This document shows, in pieces, positions 14,090 to 64,000 of a stretch of DNA of 64,000 bases. The position numbers and the translations under genes are program-made. The number at the start of each line of letters is the position of its first letter. Position 1 is the first letter of the stretch. The stretch spans positions 166,594,001-166,658,000 of the forward strand of contig OZ024740.1 of NCBI GenBank assembly GCA_964016885.1, given 5' to 3'. The notes beneath the pieces are model-generated. The model saw only the letters and a list, made by a program, of their open reading frames with translations, searched no databases and had not been told where the DNA came from. The stretch is from Eledone cirrhosa. Taxonomy: Eukaryota.

Positions 14090-14700
14090 TTGTTATACTT
14101 GGGGAGGGTCATATTTGTGTAATATTGCCAAAATTAATAACAGAACACATTCACTGATTGGTTCGTTTTCGCTTTTCGCTTCTGTGTATTTTATATCGGT
14201 AATCTAATTTATTCGGTCCTCAATGTTGCCATTGACTGACCGACGGTCAAAAATAATACAGATACAATATAGACACAAACACATATATATAGTTTATCAA
14301 AGTTCTTTCGTTGCACATCTGCAACATCGTCAGTGGTGCTATTATTTCCACCCGTTACATTGTATGTCTACGCCATTTTTATTTAGTCTGTCTATATATT
14401 TATTTATTTATTTGTTTGTTTGTTCATTTTATTTTGTCTTCTTTCGCATAGTTTTGCGTGTGTGTATAGTGTATTATTTTTGACCGTCGGTCAGTCAATG
14501 GCAACATTGAGGACCGAATAAATTAGATTACCGATATAAAAGACACAGAAGCGAAAAGCGAAAACCAACCAAACAGTGAGTTTGTTCTGTTATTAATTCT
14601 GGCAATATTACACAAATGTGACCCTCCCCAAGTATAACAATATTTGTTTCGACACACGATTTCATATAAAAAACCTCGCAAAACTAATTCATCACCGTTA
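14090..14700 (+). mobile_element. 5'-truncated, inverted copy of the Neptune-type PLE terminus
   Basis: 14090-14470 is the reverse complement of about 44115-44503; 14471-14690 matches 44339-44548 directly. The two parts form a long inverted repeat flanked by (TA)n. Confidence 0.88.
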
Positions 14701-14877: not shown

Positions 14878-14937
<60 letters not shown>

Positions 14938-14942
<5 letters not shown>

Positions 14943-15108
14943 AAGTATGACCCCGACGGCAGAGCTCAAGCCGTTTCGACGGCCGTCGAAACGGCTTGAG
15001 CTCTGCCGTCGGGGTCATACTTTCTCCTATTACCTACTCTACTACCGTAAGTATTGAGTACTCTGGTGCGTTATGGTCCATCTGCTTCCTTACCACAACT
15101 CCTCCGTT
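14938..15108 (+). mobile_element. Fold-back micro-PLE insertion
   Basis: Perfect ~90-bp palindrome centred on GACGGCCGTC, then an ~80-bp unique tail. The right arm carries HHR stem III, GAAACGGC..GCCGTC. Flanked by (TA)n. Confidence 0.75.
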
Positions 15109-15129
15109 ATATATATGTATATATGTATA

Positions 15130-15570: not shown

Positions 15571-15594
<24 letters not shown>

Positions 15595-15605
15595 TTATTA
15601 AAATA

Positions 15606-15681
15606 ACAGATTAAAGTTTAAGCAAAGAATCGCTGCTTTCACCCTTAATGGGATCTTCTGAAACTAACAAAATCAATCTGT
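15606..15681 (-). ncRNA. Type I hammerhead ribozyme candidate (CAGAAGA core variant)
   Basis: Reverse-complement copy of the motif at 17951-18026, with all three stems retained. Confidence 0.65.
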
Positions 15682-16594
15682 AATCGCAGAACTGGGTATT
15701 TCAAAAAACGTTGCAACCGGAGGAAGACAGGAAGACGATACTTTGGTTCATGGTGACGTTCGCTGGCAAAGAACGGGAAAAAACGAATATAATACGTCAT
15801 TAATAGGAGCGGTGAAAAACAATTACGCGCAAAGACAGAACCACGTTTATGGTATAAAAGAGGTCGTAGACTAATGTTCTCTAAGTGGTGCATAGAGACG
15901 TTCTCTGGCAATGAACGAAAAAACGAAGATAATAAGTCATATGTGGAGCGTGGAGAACAATAGCACGCAAAGACAAAACCACGTAAATGGTATAGCAGAA
16001 GTTGTAGACTAAAATTCTAACTAGCAGACCGAATGAATCTCCGCTACAGAGTAAAGAACAAAGTAAATAAATACAATACAGAAGTAATAGAAACAAATAA
16101 ATACATACACGCCAACAGATACGTACATACACAAGCATACGCAAAACCTTACCATAGGTATACAAAACCACGCACATATAAATATGTGTATGTGTGTATG
16201 CTTGTGTACAAATAAATAAATAATTATATAAACGTATATAAGTAAATAAATACGTATATAACAAGCGCACACACATACCTACAAGTAAATACACGAAGGT
16301 TCGGAGACGTAAGTCAACTAAAACAAGAAGTACACATATACACACACCCACCATACGTACGAACCTGCATACTCACGCAGACGCAAAACTCCAATATACA
16401 CATAACCAAACCCTAAATACCAGAATATGTAAAAATTATACGCCATAACAGTCAAATATACGTACGAGAAGGTATACATATCTTCACAAAACATACGGGT
16501 AATATATACTTACCTATGCAAATAAGTAAAGGAATAAACAAAATATATACTTAGCTCCCACATCAAGACGTAAAATATCCACGTATAGATCGTG

Positions 16595-17800
16595 CTATCC
16601 GTTAGGGTATAACGTGTGGCTGTAATACAGGAAAGCTTTGTGCAATTTATGTTTACAAGCCGAAATTGCCTCCGATTTTTTGTTTAAGATGTGGTCCGTG
16701 GCGTAGAGTATTTCCAGGGCCTCAGCGGCGCAGAGGTCACATGGTCTTTTATTTTCGTTATACGATCTAGCCCAAGCTAGGATCTCCCAGTGTAACTTAT
16801 ATTGGGTGTGGTTGTCTTTTAGACTCCAGATATAAGCTGAAAGTGACGTCATATTCCTTCTTAGAGGGTAACGAAAAGAATGGGTATGCATGTAAAGACG
16901 CTGCTTGAAACTATTGGCGGTTAACCCTATGTAGGCCCTACGGGACGTGAGTGTTACAACCTTACATTTGTAGACAATGTTACTAGAGAGGCATTTCCCG
17001 GATAGGGGACAATCAGCCCGATTCCTACAATTACAGTTAGTACTAACTACAGGGTTGCACGTGTTCCTACGGCTAGGTAGTTTAGCTAAATTTGAAGCTG
17101 TGATGTTATGTGCAAGATTAGGAGTCGTAGAGTAAGAAATTTTAATAGTGTTTCTATTAAAAATTTTACTATATTTATGTGTAGGGGGAAATGCTTCGTA
17201 ATAAGGGAAAGAAAGATCTTAGCTAATGGTGTGGCCACCTCCATATTATATGGTGTGTTAAACCAACAAATGCGACGGGATCTTTTTTTTCTAGGTCTAT
17301 TCCCGTACTCTGTATATGCTACCTTATCGACAAATCCACTTCGAGCAAGAGCTTCATTGTAATAAGTGGATAGGTCGTTGAAAATGCGCTCGTTGGTGGA
17401 AAGACGGGAAAGCCTCAACGAAACGTTTTTTACCAGGTTCTTGGTTATGCTGGCAGGTTGGTTGGAATGCTTACTTATGTAATTAAGCGTATCATTCGGC
17501 TTTCTATACGGGTAATACAACCCATTCAATAAATTGAGGGTAACGTCGAGGTAATTAACGACCGTGAGATTGGCCTCAACCTGTATAGAGAGGTTGAAGC
17601 CTTTAAAGAAGGCTGTGAGTTATTTTCTGAATCTGTCGCAAGCACGAGGTCCGCACTTAGTCATGGTCAAAAGACCATCGTCACGGTACAAACCACCGCC
17701 CGCGTTGGGGAATTCGTCCTTGATAGAGAAAAGAAGGAAAAGGCCAATAAGATCAGTAACCTCCGCAGAGTCACTGGCGCCCATACTCACGTCGAATGGG
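16595..17800 (-). pseudogene. Naiad-type RT C-terminus + GIY-YIG endonuclease
   Basis: FDVSMGASDSAEVTDLIG, GLYRDDGL, YYPYRKPN..SNQP, WFNTPY, linker CNCRNRADCPLSGKC, IVYKC..YIGLTANSFKQR, CDLCAAE..LNKKSEAISACKH. One TAA stop and a frameshift. Confidence 0.9.
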
Positions 17801-17950
17801 GTTGCGCGTAATTGTTTTTCACCGCTCCTATTAATGACGTATTATTCGTTTTTTCCCGTTCTTTGCCAGCGAACGTCACCATGAACCAAAGTATCGTCTT
17901 CCTATCTTCCTCCGGTTGCAACGTTTTTTGAAATATCCAGTTCTGCGTTT

Positions 17951-18026
17951 ACAGATTGACTTTGTTAGTTTCAGAAGATCCCGTTAAGGGTGAAAGCAGC
18001 GATTCTTTGCTTAAACTTTAATCTGT
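17951..18026 (+). ncRNA. Type I hammerhead ribozyme candidate (CAGAAGA core variant)
   Basis: Stem I AGTTT/AAACT extended by ACAGATTGA/TTAATCTGT; core CAGAAGA; stem II CCC/GGG; GAAA; stem III AGCA/TGCT; predicted CUU cleavage after 18012. Confidence 0.7.
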
Positions 18027-18126
18027 TATTTTAATAAATATTTGCTCTTCGGTTCTTATATATCTGATATATATTTTCCTTATCGAGGCCTCTTTGGATT
18101 TTAGTCTTCAATGTTATTGTTATTAC

Positions 18127-40230: not shown

Positions 40231-40519
40231 TATATATATATATATTGTTATACTTGGGGAGGGTCATATTTGTGTAATATTGCCAGAATTAATAACAGAA
40301 CACACTCACTGTTTGGTTGGTTTTCGCTTCTCGCTGTCTTTTATATCTGCGATCTAACTTACTCGGTCCTCAATGTTGCCATTGACTGACCGACGGTCAA
40401 AAATAATACAGATACAATATAGACACAAACACATATATATAGTTTACATAATTTACATAAATCTTTCGTTGCACATCTGCAACATCGTCAGTGGTGTTAT
40501 ATTTTTTTGTTTTCTGTTA

Positions 40520-43500
40520 TATAAAAACTACAATAACAACAGAACAAATCCGCTCCTTAAAACACAGTGTTTCCTCCAAAACATACACAACAAACATATC
40601 AAAACAAGAAAATAATTTATTATTGAACAAAACACAAGCCGAACGACTAAAACACACAATAACAGTTAATATGAAAAGAACAACATACACAAAAGTCAAC
40701 GCACTCTACAGATAGAAACGCATTAACGGTAAGGAAATCCGAAATCTTATCACAGCAAACGAGAGAGATAACTTCATGAGCGTCATCCGACGCGAAACGA
40801 AATACGCTCGAAACTAATGCAATAGGCACTTCAAGAAGAAATTAGAATGGATGAATAAGAAAAAACTACAAGAAAGGAAAATCGAATATTCTCAAAAATA
40901 CCCAGATAACATTGACAATATCCGTATGACTGATGTAAAACTACCGGAAGAATTCACCAAAGACCAATCAGTGAACAAGAACAACAAATCCTACGGTTAC
41001 CACCAAAATTTGCCATCTACAAAAAGATTAACCCTATGGAGTGCAAAACGGAGCTGGAAAAGTGTTTCACAAAAATACGTTGGAATGCAAAGGTAAACAA
41101 CAACAACAACAATAATAACGGTAGTAGTAATATAAACAAAAACTCTTGGTATAGAAATAACAGCCATAACCATAACAATGGCAGGAAAGTGAGAAATAGT
41201 GATAATGGTAATAATACTAGCGATAGACAGAACAACAACAACCACAATAATAATAATAATAGAAACATTAACCACAGACACAGCAACAGCGACCACAGTA
41301 GTAATAACGGTAACAATACGAACAACAATAACAATAACCACAGTGGTAATAATGGAAATAGTTCATGTAGCAACATCAACAAAAACAAGAAACATAATAA
41401 TAGTAACAACCACAATGGTAGAAATAACAGTAACAACAACAACAATAACGGTGAAGTAAACAACAATACATCTAGCAATCATAACAATAATAATAATGCT
41501 AATGATAGAAACAACAACAACCACCCTGATAACAACAATAGCAACACACACAACTATGACGATAGATATAATGACAACCCCTTAGAGAAACTAGTTTTCA
41601 ACCCAGCTGACAAAACATATAAGATGAGTAATATCTATCCTACGAGGTTACCCTTTAATAAAAGAGTTTGCATACCACAGCAAATAGATGACGAGACGGA
41701 GGCACAGTTCACCATAGCTAGAAATAAGATTAGATAAGTAGTAGACAGGTATACTAAGAGACAGAGCAGACCAGAGGCCCAACAACTTGAGAGGAAACCT
41801 GTAGAAGGCTTGGTTAGCCTCAAGCAGCGCACAAGGGATGGTGAGGTAGTGTGTCTACCCACAGATAAGTCTGGTAGGATGTCAATAGATAGCATGCCGA
41901 ACTACATCGAGGCTATGCAACCCCACATCACCAACACGAACAAAGTTGCACAACAAACACACGATGGGAGAGAAAAAATCCTCAACGCTCACATGATGAT
42001 GTGGACTGACATCCTAAAGCCAAGCAGACGCACTGCCAACAACTTCCAGGCGTCTAACAATGGCATACCACCCTTGTATGGGCTCCGCAAAGACCACAAG
42101 ACAGTCGACGACCCGACAACAGGACCACCAACAAGACCCGTATGCGGAGCTAATATAGCTAGCAACTACAGGATCTCCTACTTCCTCTCAATGGTTATAC
42201 GCCCCATAATCAAGATGTCCCCAGATATATGTGAAAGTACAGAGGACCTCCTCAGCAGAATCAGTGAGTGCAACAAAAACAGGAGCCTATCCAACTGCAT
42301 AATAGGCAGTATGGATGTGGTGTCACTGTACCAATCCATTAACATTGATTTTGCTGTGAAAAGATGTGTGGAGATGATCATTGAGAGTGAGGTGGAGTTC
42401 TGCGACGTCGACACAGACGAACTGGGCCTCCTACTTAGACTTACCTACGACACTGACTACCTAGACAGCTATGACCTTAGATGTTTCTGCCCTAGTAGAC
42501 CTACAAGAGGTAGACACCCCACCATAACCTCAATGGCAAACAAGACTCCCATGGGAAGGTGGATTGGGTGGGCCAAAGCTATACGGACCCCCCAAAACAA
42601 TGATCAGGTAAGAAAAATGGTCGCACATGCAATAGGGGCTAGTATCAAAACTACCCTAAAGGGCCACATATTTAAGTTCAATGAGAAAATCTACACCCAA
42701 AATTAGGGAGCAGCCATCGGCGTCAGCATAGCTGGTGATGTTGCCAACCTTTTCATGGTATGGTGGGAAAGGAGACTTAAAGATCTCCTTAATGAAAGCT
42801 CCATAGACCTCATCATGTACTCTCGTTATGTAGACGATATCAATATAGTTATAAGAACACCCTCATTAGAGAGCACTAACAAGTTTGATTTAGAACGTAG
42901 CACGATGGAAAGCATCCAGCAGATAGCTAATTCCATACACCAGAGTATAACTGTAACTATCGACTTCCCTTCCAAACACCCTAACAATAGACTACCTGTA
43001 TTAGACACAGAACTCTGGATTAACACTATAGACGAGAGAGCCCAAATTCTCCACTCACACTATGCTAAACCCATGGCCTCCAAATACCTGATACTCAAAA
43101 ACTCAGCAATGTCCAGTAGTGCTAAGTTTAATATTCTAATCGCAGATTTGGTACGAGTGATGAAGAATGTGTCCAGCATGTGCGACCCAACAGAATTGGA
43201 AAGACACATCCAACACTTCATCAACCGCATGCAGTTTTCTGGCTACAACCAAAGAGACAGAGTCAGAGTATACGAAGGAGCCATGGAAAAGTATAAGACC
43301 CTCATAGAACTGGACATGAAAGGAATTTGCCCATTATACAGGAGCAGATCATGGAATAGCTTAGATAGGGCTAGACATAAGATAGGGAAGGCCACATCAT
43401 GGTACGACAACCAGAGATATCAGAGTGTCATGTTTGTGGACGCCACCCCTGGAGGGAAATTAGCTAACCAGTGTAGAAAGGCCCTGAGAAAGACCCACTT

Positions 43501-43983
43501 AAAAATAAAGGTGGCAGAAAAGCCAGGAACCACCATAAAATCCCTGATCAGCAAAACCTACCCTTTTAAGAAAACCCACTGTACCAATAGGAAATGTATC
43601 ATATGTAAGGTGAACCCCCGGATAAACTGTAAAACTAGAAACGTAGTCTATAGCATAAGATGTACAGAGGGCACTTGCAGAAACATGACAACAACATACA
43701 TAGGTGACACAGCTCGTAGCATAGGTGAAAGGATAGACCAACACTGGGGGAACTAAAAGGACGAAAAAACGGGTCAGTACTATACGAACATGCTAGACAA
43801 TAACATGACGGTAACATAGACAACATAGAAATTAGAATAATATCTAAACATAGGAATGACCCAGCAGATAGGCAAATCAGAGAGGCCAGTGAAATAGAAA
43901 TTAGAAGACCAAAGCTAAACAGAAAGAATGAGTGGAACAACAACAACACCCAAACAAACAACACTGACCTAAGAGAAGTATAA
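40520..43983 (+). pseudogene. PLE polyprotein (RT + Cys linker + GIY-YIG) with several stops and a frameshift
   Basis: LPPKFA, LPTDKSG, PPLYGLRKDHK, PTRPVC, GSMDVVSLY, QN*GAAIG, YSRYVDDI, LPVLD, CTNRKCIIC..C, VVYSIRC..YIGDTARSIGER, LNRKNEW. Confidence 0.92.
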
Positions 43984-44249
43984 ATAAGTAAATAAAATAA
44001 AATAAAATAAGATAAATAAATACATACACAAGCACAATAACAACAAGCACATAAACACACACTAGTCACCCAGCAAACACAACACTATACACACTAGTCA
44101 CACAGCAAACATAACACTATACACACACGCAAACGCATGCGCAAAGAAGACAAAATAAAATAAACAAACAAGCAAATAAATAAATAAATATATAGACAGA
44201 CTGAATAAAAAATGGCCTAGACATACAACACAACAGGAGGAAAAAATAT

Positions 44250-44320
44250 AACACCACTGACGATGTTGCAGATGTGCAACGAAAGATTTATGTAAATTAT
44301 GTAAACTATATATATGTGTT
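44250..44320 (+). ncRNA. Hammerhead-like motif in the PLE pLTR
   Basis: CTGACGA-T-GTTGCA-GATG-TGCAAC-GAAAG: core and stem II are clear; stems I/III are weak. Copies on the minus strand at about 40463-40491 and 14305-14333. Confidence 0.5.
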
Positions 44321-44543
44321 TGTGTCTATATTGTATCTGTATTATTTTTGACCGTCGGTCAGTCAATGGCAACATTGAAGACCGAGTAAGTTAGATCGCA
44401 GATATAAAAGACAGCGAGAAGCGAAAACCAACCAAACAGTGTGTGTGTTCTGTTATTAATTCTGGCAATATTACACAAATATGACCCTCCCCGAGTATAA
44501 CAATATTTGTTTCGACACACGGCTTCATATAAAAACCTCGCTA

Positions 44544-44583
<40 letters not shown>

Positions 44584-46002: not shown

Positions 46003-46070
<68 letters not shown>

Positions 46071-46076
46071 CTATTC

Positions 46077-46933
46077 TCCTCTATGTTGAGAAAAAAATTT
46101 GGTCGTTCCGACTGCTGCTAGTGACAGTGGTGGCCGTTTGACCTACCTCCCTCTGCCTCTATCTTTACTTCGGCCCTTGAAAAAATTGATTCCACTTCAT
46201 TTACTCTCATCTCGGGAACAGTTTTGGATAGCGTTAGTTCGTAATTTAAATTCAAGAATTTTATATTCTTCGAATGAAAAGAACATTCTGACGAGAATCT
46301 TTCTTTGCAACGAAGGCCGTATGGTCTCCGTTTATTTTTGAGATTCGAAACCGATTCGGTAAAGGTAACTATAGTAAGTCAAGTCAATTTTTTAAAATTT
46401 ATTTTGAAACTTTTTCATTATTTGCTAAACCTGATTATATATGTTCTGGCTCGTTAATTTATTAACCTGCCATTGAACCACATTGGCATATGGTTGGACA
46501 ATACATGTGTCCCTTAGCGCTTTGTGCGTGTAGGAACACATATCCTATTATTAATATACTCCTCTATTTTGAGAAAAAAATTTGGTCGTTCCGACTGCTG
46601 CTAGTGATAGTGGTGACCGTTTGACCTACCTCCCTCTGCCTCTATCTTTACTTCGGCCCTTGAAAAAAATTGATTCCACTTCATTTACTCTCATCTCGGG
46701 AACAGTTTTGGATAGCGCTAGTTCGTAAGTTCGTAATTTAAGTTCAAGAATTTTATATTCTTCGAATGAAAAGAATCTTCTGACGAGAATCTTTCTTTGC
46801 AACGAAGGCCGTATGGTCTCCGTTTATTTTTGAGATTCGAAACCGATTCGGTAAAGGTAACTATAGTAAGTAAAGTCAATTTTTTAAAATTTATTTTGAA
46901 ACTTTTTCATTATTTGCTAAACCTGATTATATA
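46077..46933 (+). repeat. Tandem ~490-bp non-coding unit (about 1.75 copies), one HHR per unit
   Basis: 46077-46443 is repeated at 46559-46933 at high identity; flanked by (CA)n/(TA)n. Confidence 0.9.
46775..46858 (+). ncRNA. Type I hammerhead ribozyme with a large stem-II loop
   Basis: ATCTT-CTGACGA-GAATCT-[40 nt]-AGATTC-GAAA-CCG-ATT-CGG-TA|AAGGT. Second copy at 46283-46366 has a weaker stem I. Confidence 0.75.
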
Positions 46934-46942
46934 TATATATAT

Positions 46943-47929
46943 AAACGGAAAAAATGAAACGAAATGTCATTTCTCACTCGTAGTACGGGTGTTACTTAAA
47001 TATAAGTATGTATACGTACATACACATATGTATACAGTCGTACAGTAGTATGTATGTATATATACATACATGCACACATATATATATATGTACGTATGGA
47101 TTCACCGATCATTTATTATAATGCTCGGTGTGTTTGTAAACAGACATCCCGAATTAAGCCGTACAGTGTCTAGCAACCATCGTTGCTCATTTGTTCAACA
47201 CTGACAAAGGAACGCTGTACTGGTTTCAAGCTTATTAGCTATCGTCAACCATCTGGCAAGAAGGTATACGTTGCTGACCATAGCTAATAAGCTTGAAACT
47301 AGTACAGCGTTCCTTTGTCAGTGTTGAACAAATGAGCAACGATGGTTGCTAGACACAGTACGGCTTAATTCGGGATGTTTGTTTACAAACACACCGAGCA
47401 TTATAATAAATGTTCGGTGAATCCATACGTACATATATATATGCGTGCATATATATATATACATACTATTGTATGTCTGTATACATATATGTATGTGCGT
47501 ATACATACTTATATTTAAGTAACAGCCGTACTAAGAGTGAGAAATAAAATTTCGTTTCATTTTTTCCGTTTATCGTTTTCGATACCCTGGCCGATTAACT
47601 CACTCGATATGCAAATTAGGCTGCTCAGCCGTTAATATGCATAAGGAAAGTATATACTTTCAGACGTTCAACCATCTGGCAGGAAGGTATACGTTGCTGA
47701 CGATAGCTAATAAGCTTGAAACTAGTACAGCGTTCCTTTATCAATGTTGATCAAATGAGCAATGATGGTTGCTAGACACTGTACGGCTTAATTCGGGATG
47801 TTTGTTTACAAACACACCGAGTATTATAATAAATGTTCGGTGAATCCATACATACATATATATATATGTGTGCATGAATGTATATATATATACATACTAC
47901 TGTACGTCTGTATACATATATGTATGTAC

Positions 47930-47930
<1 letters not shown>
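46943..47930 (+). mobile_element. Non-coding PLE/retrozyme-like element: inverted partial unit plus tandem 423-bp units
   Basis: 46943-47247 is the reverse complement of about 47275-47572. Direct units start at 47246 and 47669 (CAACCATCTGGCA). HHR in each unit. Confidence 0.85.
47691..47733 (+). ncRNA. Minimal type I hammerhead ribozyme
   Basis: ACGTTG-CTGACGA-T-AGCT-AATA-AGCT-T-GAAAC-TA-GTA|CAGCGT, with palindromic ACTAGT stem III. The copy at 47268-47310 has CTGACCA (G8C). Confidence 0.85.
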
Positions 47931-48006
<76 letters not shown>

Positions 48007-48007
<1 letters not shown>

Positions 48008-48160
48008 CGAAGGAAATGTGGTAAGGAACCAGGTGGACCATAACGCACTAAAGTACTCAATACTTAGGGTAGTAGAGTGGGTAATAGGAACAAGTAAGAC
48101 CCCGTCGGCTGAGCTCAAGCCGTTTCGACTTGAGCTCAGCCGTCGGGGTCTTACTTGTTC
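48007..48160 (-). mobile_element. Fold-back micro-PLE insertion
   Basis: Minus-strand relative of 14938-15108, with inverted arm GAACAAGTAAGACCCCG..GAGCTCAAG / CTTGAGCTC..CGGGGTCTTACTTGTTC. Confidence 0.72.
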
Positions 48161-48191
<31 letters not shown>

Positions 48192-48196
48192 CACAA

Positions 48197-48487
48197 GGAG
48201 GCACATGGCTTAGTGGTTAGAGCATTGGCCTTGCAATCGAAAGTTTGTGAGTTCAATTCTCAGACCGGGCAATGTGTTGTTTCCTTGAGCAAGACACTTT
48301 ATTTCACATTGCTCCAGTTTACTCATCTGTAGAGTGGTCGTGCAGGTGCCACGGCAAAAAGAACCCAACACTCACTGTAAATGAGGTTGGTGTTAGGAAG
48401 GGCATCCCGCTGTAGAAATCAAGCCAGAATCAGTTCCCGTCTTACCCTTGCAAGCAGGGAAAAGCGTACGTAAAATAATGATGATGT

Positions 48488-48490
<3 letters not shown>
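48197..48490 (+). mobile_element. tRNA-derived SINE, family B
   Basis: A-box TGGCTTAGTGG, B-box GAGTTCAATTCT, CCTTGAGCAAGACACTTT, tail ..GTTAGGAAGGGCATCC..(ATG)n. Confidence 0.85.
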
Positions 48491-63644: not shown

Positions 63645-64000
63645 ACAAAACAGTACCAAATCGTGGGTACGATCCACGAGTCGGCCAATTTATATGAAAA
63701 TGTATTCCATATATGTATTTTATTCATGGGGAAATAAAGAAATACCTTCAGTTCCCTATCTTAAATACACTTTCGGTTATACCTATGAAAATATTTAGCC
63801 CGGGGCGTACAAAGCAGTACCAAATCGTGGGTACGATCCACGAGTCGGCCAATTTATATGAAAATGTATTCCATATATGTATTTTATTCATGGGGAAATA
63901 AAGAAATACCTTCAGTTCCCTATCTTAAATACACTTTCGGTTATACCTATGAAAATATTTAGCCCGGGGCGTACAAAGCAGTACCAAATCGTGGGTACGA
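63645..64000. repeat. 164-bp tandem repeat running off the window
   Basis: CAGTACCAAATCGTGGGTACGA at 63651, 63815 and 63979; units nearly identical. Confidence 0.95.

Follow-up and report, generated by a model that had tools for sequence, protein, structure and literature searches.

What is the hammerhead-bearing repeat at 46931-48006 in this window of Eledone cirrhosa DNA (64,000 nt of contig OZ024740.1, the whole stretch that was analysed), and what machinery put it there? The first-pass annotation had proposed a retrozyme, a non-autonomous RNA parasite with tandem 423-nt units that is mobilised by the reverse transcriptase (RT) of a Penelope-like element (PLE). The locus itself, its relatives throughout the genome and the PLEs around them all bear on the answer.

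Positions in the 423-nt unit are numbered so that position 1 follows the hammerhead cleavage site (Table 1). The two ribozyme sites that had been placed 423 nt apart were located, with cores at 47274 and 47697 and cuts after GUA at 47304 and 47727, and the inverted partial copy 5' of the direct repeats and the (TA)n flanks on either side are also present. The inversion junction lies at 47245-47247. From there the direct arm extends to ~47930 and consists of unit 364-423, one full monomer and unit 1 to ~213. The description of the locus as tandem 423-nt units is right as far as the direct repeat goes (47245-47465 vs 47668-47888, 92% identity), but only one monomer is complete and the remainder is partial. 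The inverted arm retains a piece of the ribozyme without C3 and without the 5' strand of stem I. As had been claimed, there is no ORF of any substance – the longest ATG ORF in a concatemer of the unit is 62 aa.

Table 1. Features of the repeat insertion and of PLE copies in the window
Feature	Position	Strand
Left (TA)n target tract	46931..46942	none
Inverted arm (unit 394-423 + 1-269) with the long, tailed end	46941..47247	-
~56-nt "tail", inverted arm only	46943..46998	-
5'-truncated start of direct arm, unit 364-423	47245..47304	+
Hammerhead 1, with G8C (47279); cleavage predicted after 47304	47268..47310	+
Complete 423-nt cleavage-to-cleavage monomer, predicted circle	47305..47727	+
Both family end sites, internal copy (short ~47517, long ~47573)	47517..47573	+
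Hammerhead 2, canonical type I with intact core; cleavage predicted after 47727	47691..47733	+
3' partial unit, 1 to ~213, stopping near the short (tail-less) end	47728..47930	+
Right (TA)n target tract	47931..48006	none
Neptune-like PLE: broken ORF, Asn-rich insert, inverted 5' pLTR, hammerhead at 44257, tail	40231-44560	
Poseidon-like PLE, truncated, with inverted 5' piece	15590-18100	-
Neptune-like family: solo pair of inverted pLTRs, one arm with a tail	14090-14640	

The two cores read CTGACCA (unit 1, with G8C) and CTGACGA (unit 2, intact), and each is followed by a U.U pair with a 4-bp stem II, GAAA and ACTAGT. The helices are thus 6 or more bp (stem I), 4 bp (stem II) and 2 bp (stem III). 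The motif had been described with a 6-bp stem I, a 4-bp stem II with a U.U pair and an ACTAGT stem III; it is present in that form except that stem I continues past 6 bp by way of an internal loop. It had also been called a minimal hammerhead, and this label is wrong by the definition in PMC4209133, in which 6, 4 and 2 bp in helices I, II and III make a "canonical" type I hammerhead, while the minimal hammerheads of PLEs have a helix II of 7-8 bp, a helix I of 4-5 bp and little or no helix III. By that definition the window ribozyme is of the canonical type I.

Searches with Rfam gave no hammerhead match at the gathering score, nor at E values up to 5 (78 weak hits inspected). The 423-nt monomer folds with a z-score of -7.7 relative to shuffles, and in the predicted minimum-energy folds the CUG of the core pairs with stem III, an inactive alternative fold. 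The ribozyme appears to be under constraint. Among copies picked by whole-unit similarity (L002-L030, array loci dropped), mismatches were found at 1.4% of positions in the ribozyme region (31/2162) vs 3.2% in the rest of the unit (484/14907; p=7e-7). At the third pair of stem I, 176 of 181 copies are paired, with U-G in 140, A-U in 22, G-U in 11 and U-A in 3, and 5 are unpaired, in a sample partly selected by the hammerhead motifs themselves. Eight of nine dimers of Xenopus retrozymes failed to cleave, according to bioRxiv 10.64898/2026.07.22.740005.

The suggestion that this locus is only half active is plausible, since G8C abolishes hammerhead activity according to PMC11167929. In addition, the window copy differs from the young unit described below at 23 positions, and pairing of the inverted arm across site 1 could mask hammerhead 1. 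From what is generally known of hammerheads, core 2, which is intact, would cleave site 1 in a dimer fold and site 2 in a monomer fold, so that one slow release is conceivable. The window copy is probably an aged, spent insertion.

The family to which it belongs is very large. A 36-nt ribozyme pattern had 5150 exact matches in the genome and its reversed control had none, so the motif is not a product of chance. With two further exact patterns (3984 and 1029 matches, controls 0), which differ in stem I or loop II and do not overlap, there are at least 10,163 motifs genome-wide. The unit is ~420-430 nt long. Loci were sampled as the first 60 distinct ones among the 5150 matches and 30 among the 3984; an RT ORF was attached to none of the sampled copies, and the expectation of many tandem, ORF-free copies was borne out. 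Family pieces were also seen in contigs from four of six sequencing runs of unknown kind, two of which are from other organisms and at low depth; these contigs were left out of the evidence.

The ends of these copies carry evidence on how they moved. A set of 83 loci, with 7 duplicate places removed, has 141 3' ends, of which 109 lie at one of two sites (unit 203-217 or 262-270) ~56 nt apart. TA-rich DNA lies directly beyond 79 of these 109 ends, vs a background of 5.7%; TSDs are unreadable inside (TA)n. A 5'-5' inversion is found in 41 of the 83 loci. When 105 loci were considered, there were 61 inversion junctions, 40 of them with both ends at fixed sites and 21 with an end elsewhere. In 38 of the 40 one end is short and the other long (p=1.5e-9), with one short-short and one long-long pair as the exceptions, and all 27 classifiable inverted pairs at young loci have one end of each kind. 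The fixed ends, the one-of-each pairing and the structure of the arms are direct observations. The family thus has 5' truncation with an inverted 5' copy, tail asymmetry and a microsatellite or AT-rich target, all features of PLE insertion.

According to PMC8557442 and PMC3846280, PLE insertions carry a tail of 30-40 bp at one of their ends, and the pairs with one long and one short end match this footprint. For a Poseidon PLE, the authors of PMC11167929 place the tail between two internal RT starts, report that both strands are cut and extended by a protein predicted to be a dimer, and report that the start site showed no strand difference and that the hammerhead was dispensable. The two end sites of the Eledone family would, by analogy, be RT start sites. 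The copy number, the lack of an attached ORF and the inversion and tail footprint together support the earlier proposal of a non-autonomous retrozyme moved by PLE machinery, and there is little doubt that the family is both PLE-mobilised and non-autonomous.

Which PLE supplies the machinery is less clear. Neptune-like and Poseidon-like families with intact frames are abundant in the genome; the name Neptune-like rests on a Cys-rich linker before a C-terminal GIY-YIG-type motif, and the PLE at 15590-18100 and its relatives are what we take to be Poseidon-like. The Neptune-like PLE that lies 1.7-2.4 kb upstream of the window copy has the same layout as the copy and another sequence. Its family is young, with open frames of more than 1100 aa elsewhere, and its pLTR ends 216 and 274 nt past its own cut site; the young unit has its ends at 216 and 275, and the spacing in a further Neptune-like family is 171 nt. 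If the unit were a non-autonomous derivative of the neighbouring Neptune-like family, the two would be expected to share pLTR sequence, but only the end spacing matches, and alignment of the unit with the Neptune-like pLTR gave no similarity (local z ~2, global 0 or below). The match in spacing is a hint only of a link to a Neptune-like helper. The Poseidon-like relatives have frames of 713 aa and a tail of ~88 nt, and no hammerhead core was found in the 3' region of the Poseidon-like PLE. A Pfam search of six window ORFs found no PLE domain; there was one weak RVT_1 match, on an unrelated LINE. A Neptune-like family is the likeliest helper, with about an even chance of being the right one.

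The window copy itself is a mirror-image insertion, truncated at the 5' side, from a family of hammerhead repeats that has many copies and no ORF. In the proposed mechanism, a tandem copy would be transcribed and its hammerheads, probably acting as dimers through the palindromic stem III, are predicted to excise a monomer, which would be ligated into a circle as in other retrozymes. A PLE protein with RT and GIY-YIG domains, presumably acting in trans, would nick (TA)n DNA and begin reverse transcription from the two fixed internal sites, ~216 and ~275 nt past the cleavage site, one per strand. The RT would travel round the putative circular template and drop off at random, leaving two head-to-head arms of 0.3-16 units.

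The template can be examined in a young subfamily, a 422-nt variant with near-identical units on many contigs (top 40 candidates scored), whose 1029 exact 80-nt matches indicate a very young burst. The 40 young loci comprise the 27 inverted pairs counted above, 10 single-armed copies and 3 of neither class. In the young arrays the units are near-identical in both arms, which reach 16.3 + 5.7 units. The 75 young 5' ends are distributed uniformly round the unit (KS p=0.57), and only one is within 3 nt of the cut site, so the template had no end there and was either a circle or an uncut multimer. An apparent pile-up of arms stopping at the cleavage site, at position 1, was an edge effect of BLAST. 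In one young locus, L200, two variants occur in 9/9 covering units across both arms, and an exact search for one of them gave nine matches, eight in L200 and one in a unit elsewhere that lacks the other variant. Repeated copying of a single monomer would best explain this haplotype, in an argument that draws mainly on this one locus and one assembly. At another young locus, 15 of the 16 full units in the two arms are of a 426-nt length variant; in L199 a variant is found in 6 of 7 units of one arm, and in L263 in part of the units.

Older loci are more mixed. In 303 comparisons of polymorphic sites between neighbouring units, 50 showed a difference (0.165), vs 0.466 between loci; some arms mix subfamilies (L030, L010), and those of L084 and L049 alternate two unit types (A/B). 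Such arms imply that templates were sometimes multimers, or were switched. Two old arrays, one with 48 full units (G000:C1:51.77-51.79 Mb) and one with 24 (C3:72.26-72.27 Mb), have higher-order periods (4, 8, 2), are mosaic and contain many damaged ribozymes; they appear to be a retrozyme turned satellite by growth at the DNA level. Multi-unit circles with one live ribozyme were considered as the source of the higher-order periods but found no support – the periods include several cores that are intact, and the long arrays have a mosaic make-up. Multimeric templates, template switching and later DNA-level growth thus seem to occur as well.

Three other explanations were weighed against a circular template and a PLE in trans. 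If the unit were simply the pLTR of an autonomous PLE, one with full-length copies that escaped the sampling, this would explain why the window copy and the neighbouring Neptune-like PLE share an architecture, and Xenopus retrozymes are homologous to pLTRs according to 10.64898/2026.07.22.740005. PLE ORF fragments also lie close to many loci (tblastn with four PLE fragments from the window gave matches near many of 60 loci), as is expected where elements that seek (TA)n nest in one another. Against it, four co-oriented upstream PLE ORF neighbours were read base by base and none of these four continues into the unit. The 62 free 5' flanks have no common continuation, two pairs alone sharing sequence, one of which is the family's own tail, and of the 4909 non-TA continuations beyond the long end, 4104 match the next bases of the unit itself exactly. 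Among 60 loci found instead with PLE proteins, two have a family copy, once inside a Neptune-like 3' UTR, and in none does it serve as a pLTR. No sampled locus has an RT and GIY-YIG ORF between pLTRs, and no parent pLTR was found in the 60 PLE loci or by alignment (the Poseidon-like 3' region gave a local z of 3.6 and a global z of 1.4). Junctions with a Poseidon-like 3' UTR in L030 and L085, at TA-rich sites and at differing unit positions, were taken for insertions rather than fusions. That the unit is the pLTR of an autonomous PLE is very unlikely, in keeping with the earlier view of a non-autonomous parasite.

Short copies may instead have inserted and grown later into arrays by unequal crossover or slippage, a satellite model that is stated in 10.64898/2026.07.22.740005 and that fits the old 48- and 24-unit arrays, with their higher-order periods and decayed ribozymes, and the partial variant runs in L263. 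It accounts poorly for multi-unit arms on both sides of an inversion, with near-zero divergence and precise PLE ends at dozens of dispersed loci, and the mutations in L199 are mostly confined to single units; as a general account it is improbable. A better case can be made for the same non-autonomous parasite copied from an uncleaved, linear, multimeric transcript, with a hammerhead that is weak or dispensable. Unprocessed RNA was the main substrate of the Poseidon PLE in vitro (PMC11167929), uniform 5' ends are predicted here too, and mixed units in some arms, including the alternating A/B arms, would follow. This explanation needs a source array that shares the L200 haplotype in at least five units, and there is none in the assembly; it also needs uncut 7 kb transcripts with 16 intact ribozymes, and the ribozyme is constrained. 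It is unlikely, though the least so of the three. As far as genomic copies can tell, the ready-made young arrays are better explained by one RNA circle copied in rolling-circle fashion than by satellite growth at a later stage, and the template was probably circular, a step that for retrozymes is still a hypothesis in the literature. Taken whole, a PLE-mobilised insertion of a hammerhead repeat, likely copied from circular RNA, is the best explanation and a likely one. A stronger version has rather less than an even chance: that the genome holds proof of a dimeric Penelope-type RT, each active site fixed to one of two starts, copying a ribozyme-made circle by the rolling-circle route in a still-transposing family, and that the parasite mimics the 216/275 spacing of its helper without its sequence.

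Other repeats were seen alongside the family. At 46069-46934 of the window there is a second ORF-less tandem family with a ~483-nt unit (2257 first-look candidates), inverted arms, two ends ~110 nt apart and (TA)n flanks; its conserved CUGACGA...GAAG core is not a canonical hammerhead. L052, L065 and L090 belong to yet another tandem family, whose period is 310 nt and which has a canonical hammerhead (U.U in stem II, ACGCGT stem III) and inverted arms, probably another retrozyme. A short element that carries a near-perfect palindrome lies in (TA)n at 48007-48160 and 14920-15110, and likewise in L047, L028 and L006. A tRNA-like SINE head is found at 48196-48490 (tRNA model 26.5 bits, below gathering), and a 164-bp tandem repeat, 99% identical, at 63645-64000, continuing past the window end. 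In L203 an entire inverted insertion has been duplicated in tandem, 2.6 kb apart.

The family belongs among the known metazoan non-LTR retrozymes, and the supplementary retrozyme lists of the cited papers could already include it. Like the retrozymes of coral, mussel and axolotl (Cervera and de la Pena 2020, PMC7229834), it has ORF-less tandem units of 150-450 nt in many copies, low GC, a self-paired fold and a canonical type I hammerhead per unit, recognised by motif and covariation, window site 1 carrying G8C. Its basal U.U in stem II and its 2-bp stem III are also those of the axolotl HHR_Amex2 in that text. Circles and cleavage are reported there, whereas the Eledone family is known from genomic sequence; conversely, the words "inverted" and "microsatellite" are absent from the portion of PMC7229834 that was available, whereas the Eledone family has arms in inverted orientation, is tailed and targets (TA)n. 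The Xenopus retrozymes (10.64898/2026.07.22.740005) are likewise linked to PLEs and co-occur with them. Their link is pLTR homology and their arrays grow locally, whereas the Eledone family has an insertion footprint, young arrays that arrive ready-made and no homologous pLTR that could be found; "tail" occurs 0 times in the available Xenopus text.

EN+ PLEs (Neptune, Poseidon; PMC8557442, PMC3846280 and PMC11167929) share with the family 5' truncation, partial tandems, an inverted 5' arm, a tail at one end, microsatellite targets and hammerheads upstream of the ends. The Eledone family differs from them in having no ORF, a tail of ~56 nt rather than 30-40, and a canonical rather than a minimal hammerhead. 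The non-autonomous Chlamys PLEs such as MRC1 (PMC8557442) are also ORF-less with multicopy head-to-tail insertions; at their 3' end they are similar to their autonomous partner, and canonical hammerheads are missing from most Chlamys elements.

In literature outside subscription journals, no paper was found that reports tail or inversion footprints for a retrozyme, and a 2020 review (PMC7761336) states that no motif in metazoan retrozymes reveals the mobilising element. What appears to be new here is the two fixed ends with their one-of-each pairing, which offer unusually clear evidence, at the level of the genome, on how a retrozyme moves. In this family the footprint of PLE machinery can be counted, and a very young burst lies beside intact candidate helpers, so that three questions become testable: what mobilises a retrozyme, whether or not the template is circular, and why the PLE tail sits on one arm only.
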